From IMG/VR virus record IMGVR_UViG_3300028888_000053, positions 148,278 to 212,277 of that record: a stretch of 64,000 nucleotides of DNA. The stretch is one strand, 5' to 3'. Below, one piece after another: positions 1-42,164 of this stretch. Made by a program: the position numbers and the translations under genes. Origin of the DNA: a virus (lineage: Duplodnaviria > Caudoviricetes). Each line of letters opens with the position of its first letter. The stretch's first letter is position 1. The notes beneath the pieces were generated by a model. That model worked only from the letters and a program-made list of their open reading frames with translations. It made no database searches and was not told the DNA's origin.

Positions 1-585
1 AACCATTAGGTAAAATTACAACGAAAGAAGATGAACTTAATGGTTTTTCAGGTGAAATGGTATATATCGATGGAAAATGTTCTGATATATTTATTTCTCA
101 TGCAGATTATGCCAATTATTTAGAAAGTGTGATTAATGAATACGTAGAATGGGAAAACGAAAAACAGTAGTACAAGAATATCTTGATTCATTAACTAAAG
201 ATGATTTATTAGCGATCATAAAGTATGGTCTTCGTGGTTCTAACGCTCCATTAGATGTTGATGTTGAAGACATTTTTACTTGTATCGGTTGTAAATACAT
301 TGAAGAAGGATGATTTACTTAAAAAGAATTTTGAATTTATTCCTGTGGCTAATAAGAATTGTCGCAGGAATTGCAATTATCATGGTTATTTATCCACTTG
401 ATTTGTTAGCCATCCCTATTTACTACGTCAAGACTGGACGTAATTATTTGTTAGACTTTAGACCGTTAGGATTTGCTATAGTGCGTTGGATTTGTGGATG
501 CGATTTTGAATGGAAAGATAATTAATATTAAATAATAATTTAAACAGAATCTCTTGGTAGCTCAATTGGATAGAGCAACAGTCTT

Positions 586-1202
586 TAATATTTGGAGCTT
601 TTATGTGGGAAATTGAGAAATTAATCAAGAAGGGTGATTATATGTATGCTTTAGTACCTGAACACCCTCATGCTACTAAAAATGGTTACGTGTTACACCA
701 TCGAATTGTTGTAGAAAACCATATAGGTAGATTACTCAATGCTGATGAAGTTGTTCATCATAAAAACCATAATAAATTTGATAACAGAATTGAAAATCTC
801 GAAGTGTTGAATTATAAAGAGCATGTTAGAAAGCATAGCTTAGAACAGGGAAGGAAATGGGCTGTACTCAAATGCCCTATATGTGGAAAAGTGTTTGAGA
901 TGCCTTATAACAAAACTGTATATCAAAAATATCCTAACGATTCTAATAAAGCACAATGTTGTTGTAGAGCGTGTGGGTGTAAGTTAGGTAGATTGAAACA
1001 ACTGAACAGAATAACTCATGAAATGGAGATTGCTATATCGGGGAATCTCCTATCTGTATACAAAAAATATACAGAGGACAACCCCGAGGTAACCTTAGAT
1101 TAAGAGGGTACCGTAGAGACTATACGCAATCCGCCTGAAATGGCGAAGGGATAGTCCAGACTACAACATTTCATAATGGCTATAGTAATATAGAGTAGTA
1201 AG
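586..1202 (+). mobile_element. Group I intron in tRNA-Arg(UCU), inserted after U34, carrying an HNH ORF
   Basis: 5' exon ends in U and intron ends in G; P4 TCGGGG/CCCCGA, P3 GATTGC/GCAATC, P7 GACTA/TAGTC (GTAGAGACTATACG ... GATAGTCCAGAC). Confidence 0.9.
603..1103 (+). CDS. Intron-encoded HNH homing endonuclease with C-terminal Cys-rich domain
   Basis: HHRIVVENHIGR...VHHKNHNKFDNRIENL HNH motif; CPIC and CCRAC; lies inside the tRNA intron. Confidence 0.88.
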   Translation: MWEIEKLIKKGDYMYALVPEHPHATKNGYVLHHRIVVENHIGRLLNADEVVHHKNHNKFDNRIENLEVLNYKEHVRKHSLEQGRKWAVLKCPICGKVFEMPYNKTVYQKYPNDSNKAQCCCRACGCKLGRLKQLNRITHEMEIAISGNLLSVYKKYTEDNPEVTLD

Positions 1203-1259
1203 CTAAACTGTGGGTCTTGGGTTCGAGTCCCAACCAGGAGACTAAAAATATATAACAAT

Positions 1260-5103: not shown

Positions 5104-5666
5104 GATTCCGTAGCTCAGTTGGTAGAGCACAGCACTTTAAACTAAAAGAAGAGTGCATAGGCGAGAAATCCCTATGTAGAATCTCCTAAATTCGGTGGAA
5201 ATCCTTAGCCTACTAGATACAATACTGTTATGGGATGGCTACAGTACATTAAACAATAATGTGTAAGGACTATACCGAGCGAAAATAGTATCTCAGATAA
5301 GTCTAATTAACTTATATCGTAAGAACTGAGCAGGCGTTAAAAGTAGAGCAAATCAGATATGTCTACATACTATAATCGTGTAGAGGCCAAACGGGAGATA
5401 TCTAAGTTGGAATTGTATTCCTCAATGGTAATGAGGTATCTAGCAATCGTACTAGGTAGGTGTTCAAATCACCAATACTCTTGCAAGAATTCCAATAAGA
5501 TAAAGAGATGGTCCAGATCACAACAGACACAAGTCTTTAGGCAACCTCTCTAAGAGCAGCATAAGACTATAGAGGTGATAGTGCAAGAATTCTAAAGTGT
5601 TTGGCTATGGTAACATAGTGTGATAGGTTAATGCTGGGGTCACGAGTTCGAATCTCGTCGGAATCA
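5104..5666 (+). tRNA. tRNA-Lys(UUU), split by a group I intron (exon 1 5104-5137, exon 2 5628-5666)
   Basis: Acceptor GATTCCG/CGGAATC, anticodon stem CAGCA/TGCTG, joined loop CTT|TTAA gives TTT, T-arm ACGAG-TTCGAAT-CTCGT. Confidence 0.92.
5138..5627 (+). mobile_element. Group I intron without endonuclease ORF in tRNA-Lys(UUU), after U34
   Basis: Guide GAGT pairs with exon ACTT (U.G at splice site); P4 TTCGGT/ACCGAG; P3 ATCTCC/GGAGAT; P7 GGCCA/TGGTC; terminal G 5627. Confidence 0.88.
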
Positions 5667-5693
5667 CTATTAACAATTTTTAATATAATTTTA

Positions 5694-6628: not shown

Positions 6629-6963
6629 GCCTAGGTGATGAAAAGGTAAACATTCCAGACTTGCATGTAACTAATTTAATATCAGTTACTTAGAGTGCAT
6701 TTAATCGAAAGGTTTAATGTAGAATCTCGCTAACAAACAGAAACCTTGAATATGGTGACATATTCTTTGGCGATGGCTCACTAAATGGATATTATATCCT
6801 AAATGGCGTAGAGACTATATACGAGACACCTAAACGATAACGTATGGTGATGAAATAGTCCAGACTACAACATCTCAAGTTAGATGGCTTATTTAAAAGT
6901 AAGAGTAGTAAGAAAATCTGGTGGAACGTAGGTTCCTTGGGGGTTCGAGTCCCCTCCTGGGCA
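6629..6963 (+). tRNA. tRNA-Leu(UAA), split by a group I intron (exon 1 6629-6662, exon 2 6913-6963)
   Basis: Acceptor GCCTAGG/CCTGGGC + A73, anticodon stem CCAGA/TCTGG, loop CTT|AAAA gives TAA, long variable arm GGAAC..GTTCC, T-loop TTCGAGT. Confidence 0.92.
6663..6912 (+). mobile_element. Compact (250 nt) group I intron in tRNA-Leu(UAA), after U34
   Basis: GTAGAGACTATACG...ATAGTCCAGACTACAACAT...GAGTAGTAAG shared with the Arg intron; P4 looks degenerate. Confidence 0.85.
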
Positions 6964-6985
6964 CTATCTAATAAATACAAAGTAA

Positions 6986-14709: not shown

Positions 14710-14781
14710 GTCTAACGTAGCTTAATGGGAAAGCGCTGGATTTTACCGGTAGATCTAAGTTCGAATCTTAGCGTTAGACCA
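14710..14781 (+). ncRNA. tRNA-like RNA with His-like body and shortened anticodon arm
   Basis: 8-bp GTCTAACG/CGTTAGAC acceptor (G-1:C73-like), D-arm GCTT/AAGC, perfect T-arm CTAAG-TTCGAAT-CTTAG; 6-nt loop ATTTTA. Confidence 0.7.
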
Positions 14782-16689: not shown

Positions 16690-17322
16690 ATGAACTATCA
16701 GATAAAAAAATATTCAATTAATAGTATTTCTATTACTGAAAATTTACATTTAAATCAAGAAACTTGTTTCTATAAATTTAATGAGTTTATAGAAAACAAT
16801 GTTTCTTATGCTACCTATGTTTGTGTTCTGCCATATTCTAAGAAAGATTATTATGCCATGAATCGATTTGATCGATCATTCATTTATGTCATACTTCCAA
16901 CACAAGAAATGATTGTTGTATTCAAAGATTATCATTTTCTGAATGAGGAACCACCTTTGATTCACAGTCCATTTATTTTTGATACAATGTATTTGGAATG
17001 TGGAAGAAGTGTAAATGGTGTATATGAAACAAAAGAAATGTATAAACTAATCGAATTTACTGGATATGGATTTGATGTTATTAAAGTAACATTTAAAGAT
17101 CCGTTAACTGATCAGGAAATTCCAAGTATTAGTAGAGAAATTATTGATCTTCCAACACTATTTAGAGATCAGAAGGGGATTGATATTTTCGAAGCAGATG
17201 CTTTGTGTACTGATTTTATGGAACAACATATGTTCGATTATTTTTATAATTTTGTATTATCTTTAATTAATTATGAACAGAAAGAAAGCGGAACCAATAG
17301 CGATACAGAGGAAGTCGATTAG
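16690..17322 (+). CDS. Hypothetical protein (ends in TAG)
   Basis: 210 aa ORF. Confidence 0.55.
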   Translation: MNYQIKKYSINSISITENLHLNQETCFYKFNEFIENNVSYATYVCVLPYSKKDYYAMNRFDRSFIYVILPTQEMIVVFKDYHFLNEEPPLIHSPFIFDTMYLECGRSVNGVYETKEMYKLIEFTGYGFDVIKVTFKDPLTDQEIPSISREIIDLPTLFRDQKGIDIFEADALCTDFMEQHMFDYFYNFVLSLINYEQKESGTNSDTEEVD

Positions 17323-17481
17323 TAAATATGATCCAGACACAGAATGCAAAAGAATATGCAAGAATTGTTCGTTGTGGATTTATTGTAAGACTTCTGGTGC
17401 TGATCCTGATGAAGAGGATAATCTTTGTTTTACTCTAGAATAGTTGATCTAAATCAAAAAAGTGTTTTATAATTTGATTTT

Positions 17482-17874
17482 ATGACAATAGATAGTTATA
17501 ATTGTATTTCAATTGTAGTTAGTATTATACTTGGCATATGTATTGGTGCAGAAAGACAAATACATAAACACAATGCTGGTATTAGAACATTTACATTGAT
17601 TTGTCTTGGATCAACTCTAGCAATGATTCTATCTGATTCTTTTTCTGATAGTGATCCAAGTCGAATTGCTGCACAAGTTGTATCAGGAATTAGTTTCCTT
17701 GGTGCTGGCATTATTATGCATAGTAAAGATCGTGTGTATGGTCTTACAACGGCAGCTTGTACTTGGATTACATCTATTGTTGGATTAACTGTTGGACATG
17801 GTATGTATATAGAAGCTACTTTTGTAACTTTTATTATGATATCATTATTATCTATATTAAGTCGATGGAAATAG
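17482..17874 (+). CDS. mgtC: MgtC/SapB family membrane protein
   Basis: IGAERQ...AGIRTFTLICLGS...DPSRIAAQVVSGISFLGAG...GLTTAA..W. Confidence 0.9.
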   Translation: MTIDSYNCISIVVSIILGICIGAERQIHKHNAGIRTFTLICLGSTLAMILSDSFSDSDPSRIAAQVVSGISFLGAGIIMHSKDRVYGLTTAACTWITSIVGLTVGHGMYIEATFVTFIMISLLSILSRWK

Positions 17875-18504
17875 AGTATTGTATAACAAGGGATGAAGAT
17901 GGAGAATTGAAGCTTCAAGAGAAGACTGATATATATCCATTTAAAGTTGAACCAGATAATTTTTGGATAGGTAACCACGTTCGATTAGATCCTGACTTAT
18001 TCCCAGAAATTAGATGGGGAGACGATCCAAAACAAGTTAAAATAAATGTCACTATTAGCGTACCTACAGATCAGATTCAGGAAGAACAACCATCCGAAAT
18101 ACCATAAATATCAGGAGATGTGGATACAGAATCTGACACAGAATCAAATTGATTATTTTATTAAAGAAGCAAAACATTTGGGTTATGAGATATGAAAAAT
18201 GTATCCTAGTCCCATTCCCTGATTACTAGGAATTTGTTTCTTAGACATACAATAATAAAAGGTTTAAGACAGTTGCTAGGTATTTAGAAAAGGAAGATTT
18301 GTATCTTCTACCAGAAGATTGGGCAAATGGAGTAATGAAAAAATTATATGGCTACGAATTATAAAACTAAATATATACGTTTGGGATGGCCAGAATATCA
18401 AGATTATATGGGTCATAAAGACTTTTATGAAGAGTCTGGATATGATCCAGTACTTGATTATTACTATATTCCTGAATATATTATAGAAGAAGTAGATAAA
18501 AACA

Positions 18505-18972
18505 ATGAAAGTAATATTTCTTGATTTTGATGGCGTAATAACTACATATGTATCTTCTTGGACATTAGTTCCAGAAAAAATGGATCTTGTTAAAAAGATT
18601 ATAGATGCAACTGGAGCTAAAATTGTTATTAGCTCCGCTTGGAGAAGGAAAACACTAGAAGATACATTTAGGTTTATTACTGATCCGAATAATCATTATG
18701 TTGGTAGTAATCCATTTAGTCTATGTGAATATGTAGTAGGACAAACTGATCGACTTTATAGTGAAAATCGATTTAGCGGACATGTTAGACGAGGAGATGA
18801 AATCCAAAAATGGATTAATGAACATGATGTAGAAAATTATATTATCCTCGATGATGAAGATGACTTTTTATTGAATCAGTATACCCATTTTGTCCATACT
18901 AATTTGGAAATCGGTATTACTCAAGACGACGTAGATAAAGCAATAGAAATTTTATCAAACGAAACATTATGA
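18505..18972 (+). CDS. HAD phosphatase (Swiss-army-knife RNA repair type)
   Basis: FLDFDGV, IVISSAWR, RGDEIQKW, YIILDD. Confidence 0.8.
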   Translation: MKVIFLDFDGVITTYVSSWTLVPEKMDLVKKIIDATGAKIVISSAWRRKTLEDTFRFITDPNNHYVGSNPFSLCEYVVGQTDRLYSENRFSGHVRRGDEIQKWINEHDVENYIILDDEDDFLLNQYTHFVHTNLEIGITQDDVDKAIEILSNETL

Positions 18973-19415
18973 AATATTTTACAATTAAGGAATTATGTTA
19001 TTCTGAAACAGCTTAGAAGTTAGGGATTAAGAATGAACCTACGGAAGAAATAAAAAATCATTTAAGTGAATTAATCATTAAAATACTAGATCCATTACGA
19101 GAAGCTTGGGGAAGTGGTATTAGAGTGACTTCTGGATATAGAGGTCCAGCTTTAAATAAAGCTGTTAAAGGTAGTAATACAAGCGCTCATTGCACAGGTT
19201 ATGCTGCTGATCTTGTACCAATTAATGGATAGATGACTAAATTCAAAACGTTTGTTAAGAATTGGTTGAAATCTTCTGGCGTTATGTGGGATTAGTATAT
19301 TAATGAATTCTCTGGAAATTCAGAGTGGGTACATATTGGATTAAAAAATAGATCAGGCAAACAACGTAAACAATTTTTACTATATAAAAATGGTAAATAT
19401 TCTTATATTAATTAA
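18969..19415 (+). CDS. Peptidase M15-family endolysin, 148 aa, with three in-frame TAG codons read as Gln
   Basis: Missing from the ORF track; reads MKYFTIKEL...LDPLREAWG..IRVTSGYR..ALNKAVKGSNTSAH..GYAADL...WD*YINE...WVHIG; TAG at 19014, 19230, 19293; TAA stop at 19413. Confidence 0.9.
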
Positions 19416-19417
19416 TT

Positions 19418-19990
19418 ATGGATTTATTAATTGCAACGCATAATTCTGCAACGGGAGAAAAGCCGAAGTCTATTTGGTCGTGGTTACTTACTCCTTTTGC
19501 AAAGTGTCAAAGTAAGACAATTAAAGAGCAATATGATGCTGGTTGTCGTATGTTTGACCTTAGGGTGAGGTGGGATAAGATGTCATGGCGATGTGCTCAT
19601 GGTTTATGGATGAGTAAAAAGACTGTTCCAGAAATCCTTCATGTTATTGATAGCTTTCCAGAACATTGTTATGTATTAATTACATATGAAGGAAAACTAA
19701 AGGATAAGGAGGATAGAGAAGATTTTATTATCTTTTGTAAATGGTGTCGTTCATCTTTTAAAAACATCTACTTTGGTAGTGCGGCAGCTAAGTATAGTGA
19801 TAAGGATACAAAGGTAGATTGGATTGAAGTGTTAGCTCCAGTGAAGACACATGCTTCTAAGAAAGGATTTCTTCCACTGGATGGCAAACATTGGCAAACC
19901 TATTTGCCAATTCCTTGGTTGTGGAATCAATTGTATACAAAGAATCATAAATTTGATTCGGAAACATTTACATTTGTTGATTTTTTATAA
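19418..19990 (+). CDS. PI-PLC-like phosphodiesterase
   Basis: ATHNS...CQSKTIKEQYDAGCRMFDLRV...AHG. Confidence 0.75.
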   Translation: MDLLIATHNSATGEKPKSIWSWLLTPFAKCQSKTIKEQYDAGCRMFDLRVRWDKMSWRCAHGLWMSKKTVPEILHVIDSFPEHCYVLITYEGKLKDKEDREDFIIFCKWCRSSFKNIYFGSAAAKYSDKDTKVDWIEVLAPVKTHASKKGFLPLDGKHWQTYLPIPWLWNQLYTKNHKFDSETFTFVDFL

Positions 19991-20414: not shown

Positions 20415-20597
20415 ATGATTATGAAAAGACTCGCAATTGTATTTGCCCTTTTTCTGATCGCATGCTTTAGCTCATGTGGAAATTGTGCAAAGACATGTGA
20501 CGTTGAGAATGATTCTACAGCTGTTGACACAACCGTTGTTGATACCGTTAATGTTGACTCTGTTGTTGTTGACAGTACTGTAGTTGACACTCTCTAA
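20415..20597 (+). CDS. Small secreted protein or lipoprotein with tandem D(S/T)x repeats
   Basis: Signal peptide with Cys (FSSC), then DSTAVDTTVVDTVNVDSVVVDSTVVDTL. Confidence 0.7.
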   Translation: MIMKRLAIVFALFLIACFSSCGNCAKTCDVENDSTAVDTTVVDTVNVDSVVVDSTVVDTL

Positions 20598-20641: not shown

Positions 20642-20714
20642 TGGAGGTTAGTATAATTGGTTAGTACATTGGATTTTGGTTCCAATAGTTCTGATTCGAG
20701 TTCAGAACCTCCAA
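20642..20714 (+). tRNA. tRNA-Gln(UUG), intronless
   Basis: Acceptor TGGAGGT/ACCTCCA (U1-A72), anticodon stem TTGGA/TCCAA, loop TTTTGGT. Confidence 0.9.
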
Positions 20715-20746
20715 CAAAGTAATAACAAGTTTAAACTTATTTATTT

Positions 20747-20929
20747 ATGAAGTACTTTTTAATGATTTTGGCATTGTTGTGCCTTTCTGGATGTGGTTCA
20801 TATATTGAAATAGAACCATTTCCAGTTTACACGAGGCATTATTATTACGCGCCTCCGCCCAGAGTTTATCATCATGGTCCGCCTTTGATTATTCATCCGA
20901 GGCCAAGACCACCGTATCATCGATATTAA
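20747..20929 (+). CDS. Small Pro/His/Tyr-rich lipoprotein
   Basis: LSGC lipobox; PPPRVYHHGPP tail. Confidence 0.6.
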   Translation: MKYFLMILALLCLSGCGSYIEIEPFPVYTRHYYYAPPPRVYHHGPPLIIHPRPRPPYHRY

Positions 20930-20934
20930 TAACC

Positions 20935-20963
20935 AAGGCTGCATTCGAAAGAGTGTGGCCTTT
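20935..20963 (+). terminator. Terminator-like hairpin
   Basis: AAGGCTGCATTC-GAAA-GAGTGTGGCCTT. Confidence 0.55.
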
Positions 20964-36755: not shown

Positions 36756-37376
36756 TTGAAAACTTGTAATCTAAGTATTGAAAGTGAGTTGGCTCTTATT
36801 GAAAGATTTGGGCTAACTCCAAATGAATTATTTATACTACGGCTATTGATTCTTGCAAAAGCAGAATCTACGCAAACATATCTTTTTAGATTCTTGCAGG
36901 GAGGTGAATCAAACAAATCGATGGTAAGGGATTGTTTGTATTCTCTGCAAGCTAAAGGTATTATATTGAAGGCTTATGATATACCAGCAGAAGGCCAGAG
37001 ATTTGTACCTAAAGAGGTTTTATTTAGTAAATCTTTTGATAAGAATTATGAGAAAGCATCTTTAGAAATGGGTAGAGAATTGTTTAGTGTGTATCCTATG
37101 TTTGCTCTAATTAATGGAGTAATGGTACCAATTAAAACAGTTTCTAAACATTTTAATTCTATTGATGATGCTTATCGATTCTATGGAAAGACAATTAAAT
37201 ATAATCAAGAATTACATAATCATATTATTGAGTTAGTAAAATGGGCAGTTGATAATACTAATATTATTAACTGTTCGTTTAGTAGTTTTTTAATTAATAA
37301 TTTTTGGGAAACATTAGACGCAATTAAAGACGGAGATCAAGGCAATATTAATTTTGATACAGTACGATTACTATGA
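36756..37376 (+). CDS. Hypothetical protein coupled to DnaB (possible initiator or loader)
   Basis: TTG start, ATGA overlap with dnaB. Confidence 0.5.
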   Translation: MKTCNLSIESELALIERFGLTPNELFILRLLILAKAESTQTYLFRFLQGGESNKSMVRDCLYSLQAKGIILKAYDIPAEGQRFVPKEVLFSKSFDKNYEKASLEMGRELFSVYPMFALINGVMVPIKTVSKHFNSIDDAYRFYGKTIKYNQELHNHIIELVKWAVDNTNIINCSFSSFLINNFWETLDAIKDGDQGNINFDTVRLL

Positions 37377-38443
37377 TTACAGAAAATCTACTTAATCAAA
37401 TTGATAGTGGTAGAAGTGGTAAAAACCACGGATATTCAATTGGTCTTCCAAAACTTGAAAGGATTATAGATGGAGTAACACCATCTACTTATACTATTAT
37501 CTTTTCTCCTAGTGGAGTAGGAAAAACTACCTTTGCATTATATTCTTACATATATAAACCATTATGTGAACACATGAGTGATAATAATTTTAAGATTGTA
37601 TATTACAGTCTTGAAATGTCTGCAGAAATATTAATGGCAAAATTACTTTGCATGCATATTTTTGACACTTATGGAGTAGAATTATCATTGAAAGAATTAT
37701 TGTCTCGTCGAGCAAACTATACTTTGTCCGATGAGTATTATAATATGATTCAAGATTCTAGACCTTGGTTGGAAAGAGTTGAAGAACTCTTGATTATATA
37801 TGATAAGGGACTAAATGCAGAGGTATTATATTCTTCTCTAATGAAGCATTTGACTAATAATGGTAAGTTTACAGAAGGAGAGAATAGAAAAATATATATA
37901 CCTAATAATCCTGATTGTGTTACGTTAGTAATTATTGACCACCTTAGTTTGGTTAGACCAGCAAATGGAAGAACTTTAAAACAAGAGATGGATTTGATTT
38001 CATCATACCTTGTTACACTTAGAAATATGTGTAAGATAAGTCCTTTAGTTATTATGCAGGCTAATAGAGAATCATCCTCTATGGATAGAAGAAAGGAAGG
38101 GTTGAATAATCTAACTATTAATGATTCTAAAGATACTGGTTCTCCAATTCAAGATGCAGAGGTTGTTATTTCAATCTTTTCTCCTTTTAGAGAAAGATTA
38201 GCAACTTATCGAGGTTATGATATCAAACAGCTTGGTCCTAACTTTCGAGTCATCTCTGTTCTTAAATCAAGATATGGAGAAGCAGATATAGAAGATCCAT
38301 GTGCTTTTTATGGAAAAGTAGGAATCTTTAAAGAACTACCAAAACCAGATGAAATATATGATTATAGTAAGTACCTTACTACAGATTGGCTAATACATCC
38401 AGATGAAGAAAATAATGATTCGAAATTTAACTTTAATTTATGA
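37373..38443 (+). CDS. dnaB: DnaB-like replicative helicase
   Basis: PSGVGKT, SLEMS, IIDHL, MQANR, IQDAEVV, LKSRYG. Confidence 0.9.
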   Translation: MITENLLNQIDSGRSGKNHGYSIGLPKLERIIDGVTPSTYTIIFSPSGVGKTTFALYSYIYKPLCEHMSDNNFKIVYYSLEMSAEILMAKLLCMHIFDTYGVELSLKELLSRRANYTLSDEYYNMIQDSRPWLERVEELLIIYDKGLNAEVLYSSLMKHLTNNGKFTEGENRKIYIPNNPDCVTLVIIDHLSLVRPANGRTLKQEMDLISSYLVTLRNMCKISPLVIMQANRESSSMDRRKEGLNNLTINDSKDTGSPIQDAEVVISIFSPFRERLATYRGYDIKQLGPNFRVISVLKSRYGEADIEDPCAFYGKVGIFKELPKPDEIYDYSKYLTTDWLIHPDEENNDSKFNFNL

Positions 38444-39186
38444 GTATTGTATTGCCAACAAAACCAATTCCTAGTATTACGCAAGATCCAAAGAATCTAA
38501 TTATATACGGAGTGCCAAAAGTTGGCAAGACGTCACTTTTGTCTACACTACGTAATCTTCTATTAATCGATTTGGAAAATGGAAGTGATTATATTAGTGC
38601 AATGAAAGTCAAAGTTAATAACTTTGCAGAGTTAAAAGAACTTTGTCTTGCAATTAAGGATGCAAATTGTCCGTATGATTTTATTGCTTTGGATACCATA
38701 ACTGCGTTGGAGGAAATGGTAAAGCCTGTTGCATTAGCGTTGTATCGTAAATCTCCTATGGGAATGAATGATACTATTACAAACGATATTATTACTTTAC
38801 CTCATGGTGCTGGATATGGTTTTCTTAGAACTGCAATGGAACTAGCAATTGATATGGTTTCTAAAGTTACTAAGAATATCATTCTTGTTGGCCATGTAAA
38901 AGATAAAGTATTGGGAAGTGCAGATTCTGCAGATGTAGGTTCTGTAAGAGATTTGGATTTAACAGGTAAAATTAATAGAATTTTATCTGCCAAATCGGAT
39001 GCTATTGGTTTTATTCATCGTGATGATGATAGTAACTTGTGTATTAATTTCATTAATGGTAATGAAGTTACTGCAGGAGCTAGACCAGCACATCTTGCCA
39101 ATAAAGATATTGTAGTTGCAGAAAGAATGGACGATGGTTCATTTGTTTCTCATTGGGAGAGAATCTATCCAAGTCTTAATGCATAA
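38440..39186 (+). CDS. P-loop ATPase (AAA_24/Sak4-like recombinase)
   Basis: YGVPKVGKT, IDLENG, LDTIT, GHVKD. Confidence 0.8.
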   Translation: MSIVLPTKPIPSITQDPKNLIIYGVPKVGKTSLLSTLRNLLLIDLENGSDYISAMKVKVNNFAELKELCLAIKDANCPYDFIALDTITALEEMVKPVALALYRKSPMGMNDTITNDIITLPHGAGYGFLRTAMELAIDMVSKVTKNIILVGHVKDKVLGSADSADVGSVRDLDLTGKINRILSAKSDAIGFIHRDDDSNLCINFINGNEVTAGARPAHLANKDIVVAERMDDGSFVSHWERIYPSLNA

Positions 39187-41600: not shown

Positions 41601-42164
41601 ATGAAGAAGTAGAGTAAATTAAATACGTCGTGCATTGCTATCTTTACGGATGGAAATACAAGGACTTTTACATCAATAGAAAAGGCTAGTGAGTCAACTG
41701 GTTTATCTGTCTCTGCTATTAAGATTCGTTGTAATAAATCTGGTAGCAAAGGTAAAGATGGTATACAATTTAAATGGTTAGATGAACATACTAGGCGTCA
41801 TTTTCAAGCTAAGAAAAGTAGACGCAAAGGAAATTCCTATGAATTACAAATTATTAATGAATTGTCTGATATTGGATTTACAGGATTAAAAAGTAGTCGT
41901 AGTGAATCTAAAAATATGGATAATAATAAAGTTGATATTTGTGATTCTAATAACGAATTATCTTGTTATATACAATGTAAGAATACACAATCTTCACCTA
42001 ATATAGAAAAGATAAGTAAAGAATGTCCTTTGAAGGATAAGCCACTAATTATCTGTTGGAAGAAATCTTCTTCATGTACTAAAGAACACGAGTATGTTCT
42101 AATGCCTAAAAAGTATTTTTATCATTTATTAGAAAGTGAACGTCAAATGATTAAACGTAAATAA
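41601..42164 (+). CDS. NUMOD1-like domain plus Holliday-junction resolvase, 187 aa, TAG at codon 4
   Basis: ATG AAG AAG TAG then open frame: FTSIEKASESTGLS..., SRRKGNSYELQIINEL...SRSES...VDI...IQCK (PD-(D/E)XK resolvase); ORF track sees only the 41862 fragment. Confidence 0.8.

Follow-up and report, generated by a model that had tools for sequence, protein, structure and literature searches.

The window analyzed here is the final 64 kb of a 212,277-bp virus record with 31.5% G+C and a CheckV completeness of 100%; positions are those of the window unless marked as genome positions. On its plus strand, at 18969-19415, lies a gene for an endolysin-type zinc peptidase of the M15/LAS group. The gene has 148 codons, from an ATG start to a TAA stop at 19413-19415, and the only in-frame stops are TAG codons at 19014, 19230, and 19293 (codons 16, 88, and 109); frameshifts and internal TAA or TGA codons are absent. 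Under table 11 the frame is broken at codon 16. An initial annotation of this DNA had read the resulting gap in the ORF track as a full M15 peptidase if TAG is a sense codon, which is borne out at exactly those three positions, well outside what chance would give. The translation with TAG as Gln matches Pfam PF08291 (Peptidase_M15_3) with an E value of 3.8e-16 and a score of 59.6 bits (cut-off 23.2), and it matches the endolysin family PHROG 894 over its full length (E 3.6e-36).

The gene is packed tightly among others. Its ATG overlaps the TGA of the upstream gene (ATGA), and the next ATG follows at 19418. The upstream gene (18505-18972, plus strand) encodes a HAD-family protein (Pfam PF18143 HAD_SAK_2, E 6.6e-23) and has no in-frame TAG; since the HAD domain begins at the ATG at 18505, two TAGs at 18484 and 18493 precede the gene and are not part of it. 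Downstream, at 19418-19990 on the plus strand, is a 190-aa gene, also without TAG, whose product is weakly PI-PLC-X-like (Pfam E 0.05; PDB entries 2PLC and 1AOD, E 0.3) and may be a lysis accessory. The 190-aa protein carries an N-terminal T-H-x-S-A-T-G-E motif. On the other side of the HAD gene lies an MgtC-family gene (17482-17874, plus strand; Pfam PF02308, E 6.3e-38) that stops at a TAG, with a TAA about 3-4 codons later. Before it comes a 210-aa gene (16690-17322, plus strand) in which the TAG stop is followed immediately by a TAA. The MgtC-family protein is a membrane protein, and its gene, which sits between the 210-aa gene and the endolysin here, is absent from that place in the gene order of the related phages G002 and G003.

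None of the 63 Gln codons in the 14 genes neighboring the endolysin is TAG (P = 1.7e-16 if usage were late-type). The surroundings were initially described as standard-code genes, and this description stands, as the neighbors avoid TAG in frame and some of them stop with it. The TAG-terminated ORFs that the initial annotation listed, at 168, 3852, 7747, 17320, 17872, and 53512, all exist; three of them are short (37-68 aa). Back-up stops behind TAG-terminated early genes are not unusually close (median 5 versus 8 codons; Mann-Whitney P = 0.30).

Genes overlap or abut throughout 17482-19990. Promoter-like hexamers are found at 17444-17502, and a single terminator-like hairpin at 20935-20962. 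In a sigma-70-type scan, shuffled sequence had more promoter-like sites than the real one, a result to be read with the caveat that the sigma-70 consensus may not be that of the host, and the motif TATAATTGCA, considered as a promoter, gave no recurrent signal. The tight packing of the endolysin with its TAG-free neighbors suggests co-transcription. If the endolysin and the genes that stop with TAG do share one transcript, TAG would be both stop and sense on it, depending on the presence of a suppressor.

Further downstream, an ordinary tRNA-Gln (UUG) gene at 20642-20715 on the plus strand, found by ARAGORN and scoring 61.1 bits with the Rfam tRNA model, lies in the same TAG-free block. It is flanked by two 60-aa ORFs (20415-20597 and 20747-20929) with lipoprotein-type signal peptides, lipobox cysteines, and no TAG. 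These could be spanin-like or exclusion lipoproteins.

The enzyme family and its glutamine codons

The database holds more than 2000 homologs of the endolysin with the same length, the best of which is 97% identical over all 148 residues, while a blastn search of GenBank phage records with the endolysin locus gave no match. In an alignment of 30 homologs (A2), H74, D81, and H122 are invariant and correspond to the LAS-type zinc ligands (His-x6-Asp plus a distal His); D108 and Q109 are likewise invariant. A single-sequence search of PDB sequences found nothing, and only the family profile succeeded, with a single match to the zinc DD-peptidase of Streptomyces albus, 1LBU (E 2.4e-07), over the S-x-H-x-x-G-x-A-x-D motif. 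The AlphaFold model has a pLDDT of 96, and its top Foldseek match is again 1LBU (E 3.2e-05, TM 0.62), followed by hedgehog N-domains, VanY/LdcB, Ply500, LysB4, ChiX, and LysECD7. The predicted structure is that of a LAS fold. The window endolysin shares its fold and the H-x6-D...H zinc site with the LAS (M15) peptidases 1LBU and the phage endolysins Ply500 (2VO9), LysB4 (6AKV), and LysECD7 (8Q2G), although its identity to any solved structure is only 17-21%. Neither a signal peptide nor a transmembrane segment was found in the protein. The gene is intact; it is predicted to encode a working peptidase and is a putative lysis enzyme gene.

The endolysin has five Gln codons if TAG is included, three TAG and two CAA. 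The three TAG positions differ in what homologs say about them. Codon 109 (19293-19295, plus strand) falls at the invariant Asp-Gln position, as the initial annotation had proposed from the family's DQ motif, and 120 of 120 homologs have Gln there. The other two fall in variable columns. At codon 16 (19014-19016, plus strand) the column is mostly T/K with Gln in the five closest relatives, and at codon 88 (19230-19232, plus strand) it is R/K with Gln in six homologs, mostly the closest; the Gln in the closest relatives (79-97% identity, P0002-P0005) possibly comes from code-15 gene calling and is not independent evidence. The IMG/VR endolysin homologs inspected at the DNA level have no in-frame stops and keep the invariant Gln, with Asp-Gln in all but one.

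A genome in two blocks and its suppressor tRNA

The virus is a crAss-like jumbo phage of the code-15 type (TAG as Gln) in which recoding is concentrated in the late genes. Rereading the genes with TAG as sense raised ORF coverage of the first 130 kb from 0.435 under code 11 to 0.962, and reading TGA or TAA as sense did not rescue it. In the last 80 kb, coverage is 0.88 whether TAG is stop or sense. The recoded block is on the minus strand (genome 837-125358). Besides the large terminase, TerL (765 aa, 26 TAGs), it includes a virion structural protein as well as giant proteins that each carry 95-99 TAGs. The plus-strand block, to which the entire window belongs, encodes DnaB-like, SF2, and PIF1-like helicases, a Toprim primase, the anaerobic ribonucleotide reductase NrdD, glycosyltransferases, and NAD-salvage enzymes. 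This TAG-free plus block spans about 87 kb and about 140 genes.

The contrast in TAG usage is sharp. The late block has 21.3 in-frame TAGs per 1000 codons and the plus block 1.5 or fewer, the latter figure consisting mostly of ORF-extension artefacts. The enrichment of recoded codons in late genes, which the initial annotation gave as a property of code-15 gut phages, applies here. Out-of-frame TAG is equally common in the two blocks, at 19-25 per 1000, so the in-frame difference reflects selection on the reading frame and not base composition. TAG makes up 43.8% of Gln codons in the late block, and 61 of its 67 genes of at least 100 aa have it in frame.

TerL provides the broader evidence on what TAG encodes. 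At its 26 TAG columns, across 119 homologs, Gln accounts for 25.6% of the residues, compared with a background of 4.0%, a 6.4-fold enrichment; other residues are enriched at most 2.1-fold. Five of the columns are 68-99% Gln, and the Gln share of the TAG columns is the same as that of columns where the phage uses CAA or CAG. Gene callers may have applied code 15 to some of the database homologs, but standard-code relatives exist in numbers. Judged by the homolog columns, TAG means Gln in this phage. The initial annotation had reasoned that the endolysin would be a pseudogene if homolog columns showed no Gln bias and structural genes elsewhere lacked in-frame TAG; instead, the TerL columns are Gln-enriched and the structural genes carry in-frame TAG.

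A tRNA that could read TAG is encoded at genome 110815-110890 on the minus strand (Rfam tRNA, 38.7 bits; gathering score 29). It folds as a cloverleaf with the anticodon loop CUCUAAC, and its gene, oriented like the late genes, is about 7 kb away from TerL. The start of the acceptor stem, U1-A72, G2-C71, G3-C70, is common to this tRNA-CUA and the phage tRNA-Gln(UUG), and the acceptor stem of E. coli tRNA-Gln likewise starts with these three pairs. It seems likely that the tRNA-CUA is charged with Gln. The initial annotation had pointed to a tRNA-CUA or a release-factor gene elsewhere in the genome as something to look for; the tRNA is there, but no release-factor domain (PF00472) was found in the whole genome. 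A whole-genome search for the Glu/Gln-tRNA synthetase domain (PF00749) was also negative. The phage thus lacks two kinds of gene that would make a code switch sharper, which counts against the gated reading discussed below.

ARAGORN, with or without its intron search, returned six ordinary or odd tRNAs but missed the suppressor. Its intron option called a "Pyl(cta)" tRNA with a 9-nt anticodon loop, which was rejected as the suppressor and is probably an artefact. Two matches to the tRNA model, at window 14711-14780 and genome 141380-141453 (L088:2080-2152), have abnormal anticodon loops of 6 nt (AUUUUA) and 9 nt (AUCAUUAGA); the latter is the one called "Pyl(cta)." Other tRNA genes carry group-I-like introns in the anticodon loop (window 551-1242, 5104-5667, and 6629-6964), one of which holds an ORF for an HNH endonuclease (603-1103), and a tRNA-like gene at genome 131873-132017 has a 69-nt insert. 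These interrupted tRNA genes fill several of the gaps in the window's ORF track.

Other TAG-bearing genes and related phages

The endolysin is not the sole gene of the plus block with TAG in frame. At 41601-42164 on the plus strand, beside the primase, is a gene for a protein with a NUMOD-like helix-turn-helix and a PDDEXK/resolvase-like nuclease domain, and it has a TAG at codon 4. No alternative start was found ahead of the NUMOD-like domain, which extends from residue 12. This nuclease-like gene is predicted to be the second in the TAG-free block that depends on the suppressor. A 59-aa ORF at 18185-18364 (plus strand) is probably another TAG-dependent gene. Its sole two Gln positions are TAG, and a tandem paralog of 58 aa at 18348-18524 (BLASTP E 0.001) has CAA at the aligned site; confidence that the ORF is a real gene is moderate. 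The endolysin is therefore accompanied by the nuclease-like gene at least, and probably by this small ORF. Candidates in the plus block were judged by codon-usage score and domain boundaries. TAG-bearing ORFs at window 1140, 3003, 9987, 15142, 18319, 20145, 47151, and 49406 and at genome 125930 and 146078 were rejected on the grounds that the TAG lay upstream of the true start, was the true stop, or belonged to a spurious ORF.

Relatives of the phage carry the same kind of arrangement. By TerL, its relatives in IMG/VR include TAG-recoded phages, standard-code phages, and one with in-frame TGA. The two-block layout recurs in two of them, G002 (197 kb) and G003 (175 kb), each of which encodes a tRNA-CUA on its late strand. 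Their endolysin ortholog, 60% identical to that of the window phage, also lies in the TAG-free block, with a single in-frame TAG at codon 13, a position that matches none of the three in the window phage (G000). The order of endolysin and 190-aa gene is conserved in G000, G002, and G003, with the 190-aa proteins 46% identical, and in G002 and G003 a homolog of the 210-aa gene is directly upstream of the endolysin. Because G002 and G003 do not differ in endolysin sequence, the pair represents a single independent lineage. Another relative, G006, has an M15 gene that is 36% identical and contains four TAGs, but it is in a TAG-rich block and represents the ordinary arrangement. Among 26 further TerL relatives, the M15 endolysin was present in G006 and not found in the other 25. 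In all, the retention of TAG in endolysin orthologs is represented by two or three independent lineages.

G002 and G003 also have TAG in nuclease genes of their TAG-free block. The G002 and G003 orthologs of the nuclease gene at 41601-42164 have an in-frame TAG at codon 25. In addition, G002 has a 386-aa DUF723/treble-clef gene in its TAG-free block (L096:17353-18513; G002 37353-38513) in which codon 12, within the domain, is a TAG. This gene is of the homing-endonuclease type and would be an amber-gated nuclease.

Probable suppressor-dependent synthesis of the endolysin

The arrangement is best explained by a phage that uses two readings of TAG. The replication and metabolism genes on the plus strand are written without the need for TAG as sense, the packaging and virion genes on the minus strand use TAG for about 44% of their Gln, and the phage tRNA-CUA from the late block would read TAG as Gln. 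Without the suppressor, ribosomes would stop at codon 16 of the endolysin and release a 15-residue peptide, so full-length endolysin would be made only with active tRNA-CUA, whichever transcript carried the gene. That this is an endolysin-type gene of a two-reading phage, written with late-type codons inside a TAG-free block and needing the late-block tRNA-CUA for its full-length product, is held with good confidence. Further steps are presumed: the suppressor would act late, the endolysin would be co-transcribed with its neighbors, and the arrangement would delay endolysin synthesis and lysis, with the delay having been selected. The amber lock of the initial annotation, by which a lysis gene could sit in an early or middle transcript and yet be translated only after a code switch, agrees in large part with this account; its early or middle transcript and its timing are among the presumed steps.

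Other explanations of the gene start from the same codons. Table 11 cuts the frame at codon 16, as would be expected of a peptidase killed by three nonsense mutations, but such a pseudogene is very improbable here: there is no frameshift, TAA, or TGA, the catalytic and invariant residues are all kept, one of the TAGs is at an invariant Gln, orthologs in relatives carry TAG too, and a phage that encodes a tRNA-CUA has in-frame TAG in nearly all of its longer late genes. The main rival, though a less likely reading, is tolerated drift. Once a suppressor exists, changes from CAA or CAG to TAG are neutral in any late-only gene, and if expression of the endolysin is already confined to late times, perhaps by a late promoter of its own within the upstream gene, its TAGs would mark that timing and not regulate it. 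Drift predicts what is seen in codon numbers, as the three of five Gln codons that are TAG fit late-block usage (P = 0.38). It also accommodates the different TAG positions in G000 and in G002 and G003, and the even spread of TAG along late genes, in which no positional design is apparent. However, the endolysin start codon overlaps the stop of the gene before it, and the following start is 3 nt past its own stop, which leaves no intergenic room for control signals, and out of the roughly 140 genes in the block, the TAG-bearing ones are those that would be hazardous early. Translation would still depend on the suppressor under drift, which differs from the gated reading only in evolutionary intent. 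The data agree with both readings, with tight packing and the kinds of genes involved (a cell-wall hydrolase and DNA-cutting enzymes) leaning toward a gate over neutral TAGs.

A separate matter is whether this enzyme is the one that lyses the cell. The late region also encodes another, divergent Peptidase_M15_3 protein of 244 aa with three TAGs (genome 108755-109489, plus strand; L086:9255-9989). Its gene is 1.3 kb from the suppressor tRNA and behind that of a Gln-rich 291-aa protein with 10 TAGs. With two such genes, either could be the one responsible for lysis. The window M15 might instead be a virion-associated or accessory peptidoglycan hydrolase, with lysis carried out by the divergent late-region protein or by an unrecognized enzyme. 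The existence of the second gene speaks for this, as do a weak match of the window protein to a base-spike protein PHROG (E 1.5e-05) and the fact that no holin was identified beside the window gene. Even so, it appears improbable. The window protein is small and single-domain and has the strong full-length endolysin match, and the two small spanin-like-looking lipoproteins are encoded 1-1.5 kb downstream of it. The second M15_3 protein, with a 127-residue N-terminal extension and the Gln-rich protein preceding it, looks more like virion cargo and may be a virion-associated lysin.

Returning to suppressor-dependent synthesis, a broader suggestion is that in this clade TAGs are kept on purpose in a few hazardous genes of early or middle operons, namely, the endolysin, a junction-resolving nuclease, and homing-endonuclease-like genes. 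This is put forward tentatively, at somewhat below even odds. TAG positions turn over between lineages, so the selected trait would be a TAG near the 5' end and not a Gln at a given site. If the suggestion is right, a single transcript would carry TAG as a real stop, in the MgtC-family and 210-aa genes, and as a timed sense codon in the endolysin. The suppressor tRNA would then be a single post-transcriptional master switch for both lysis and DNA cutting.

The regulatory idea itself has been published before. Among gut phages, crAss-like ones included, structural and lysis genes that are recoded adjoin standard-code replication genes, lysis genes are preferentially recoded, and recoding has been proposed to block premature lysis; recoded modules can also be scattered, and one case involves a recoded homing endonuclease within an early gene (Borges et al., bioRxiv 10.1101/2021.08.26.457843). 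Those phages and the window phage have in common TAG as Gln in structural and lysis genes, standard-code replication genes, and a suppressor tRNA of their own. The window phage differs from the lysis cassettes described there in having a lone M15 peptidase that is set among TAG-free metabolic genes and encoded on the other strand from the late block, and it differs from their "code change module" in having no release-factor or aminoacyl-tRNA-synthetase gene. In crAss-like phages, the assignment of TAG to Gln was validated by metaproteomics (Peters et al., Nat Commun 2022, PMC9523058). The phages of that study share the TAG-to-Gln change with the window phage; the assignment is by peptides there and by homolog columns here. 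The regulatory idea was repeated in a 2025 paper on Zeta crAss-like phages (PMC12386605). The window endolysin is a clean example of this published idea and involves no new mechanism.

The example has practical value in two respects. Standard gene callers hide the endolysin together with the greater part of the genome's late half, which matters for the annotation of phages from gut and rumen. In addition, a short assayable gene with three TAGs, set between TAG-free genes, provides an unusually clean natural test of the proposal that stop-codon recoding times lysis, and the ortholog with its TAG at a different codon adds to this value.

Two observations concern terminase genes of the relatives. 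L092 (IMGVR_UViG_3300028549_001078) has a TerL with 42% identity that contains nine in-frame TGA codons and no TAG, a pattern indicating that relatives of this terminase include TGA-recoded phages too. The TerL match in G003 (L091) is about 190 bases longer than that in G002, and its straight translation loses frame midway through the gene, which suggests that the G003 terminase gene holds an insertion or intron.
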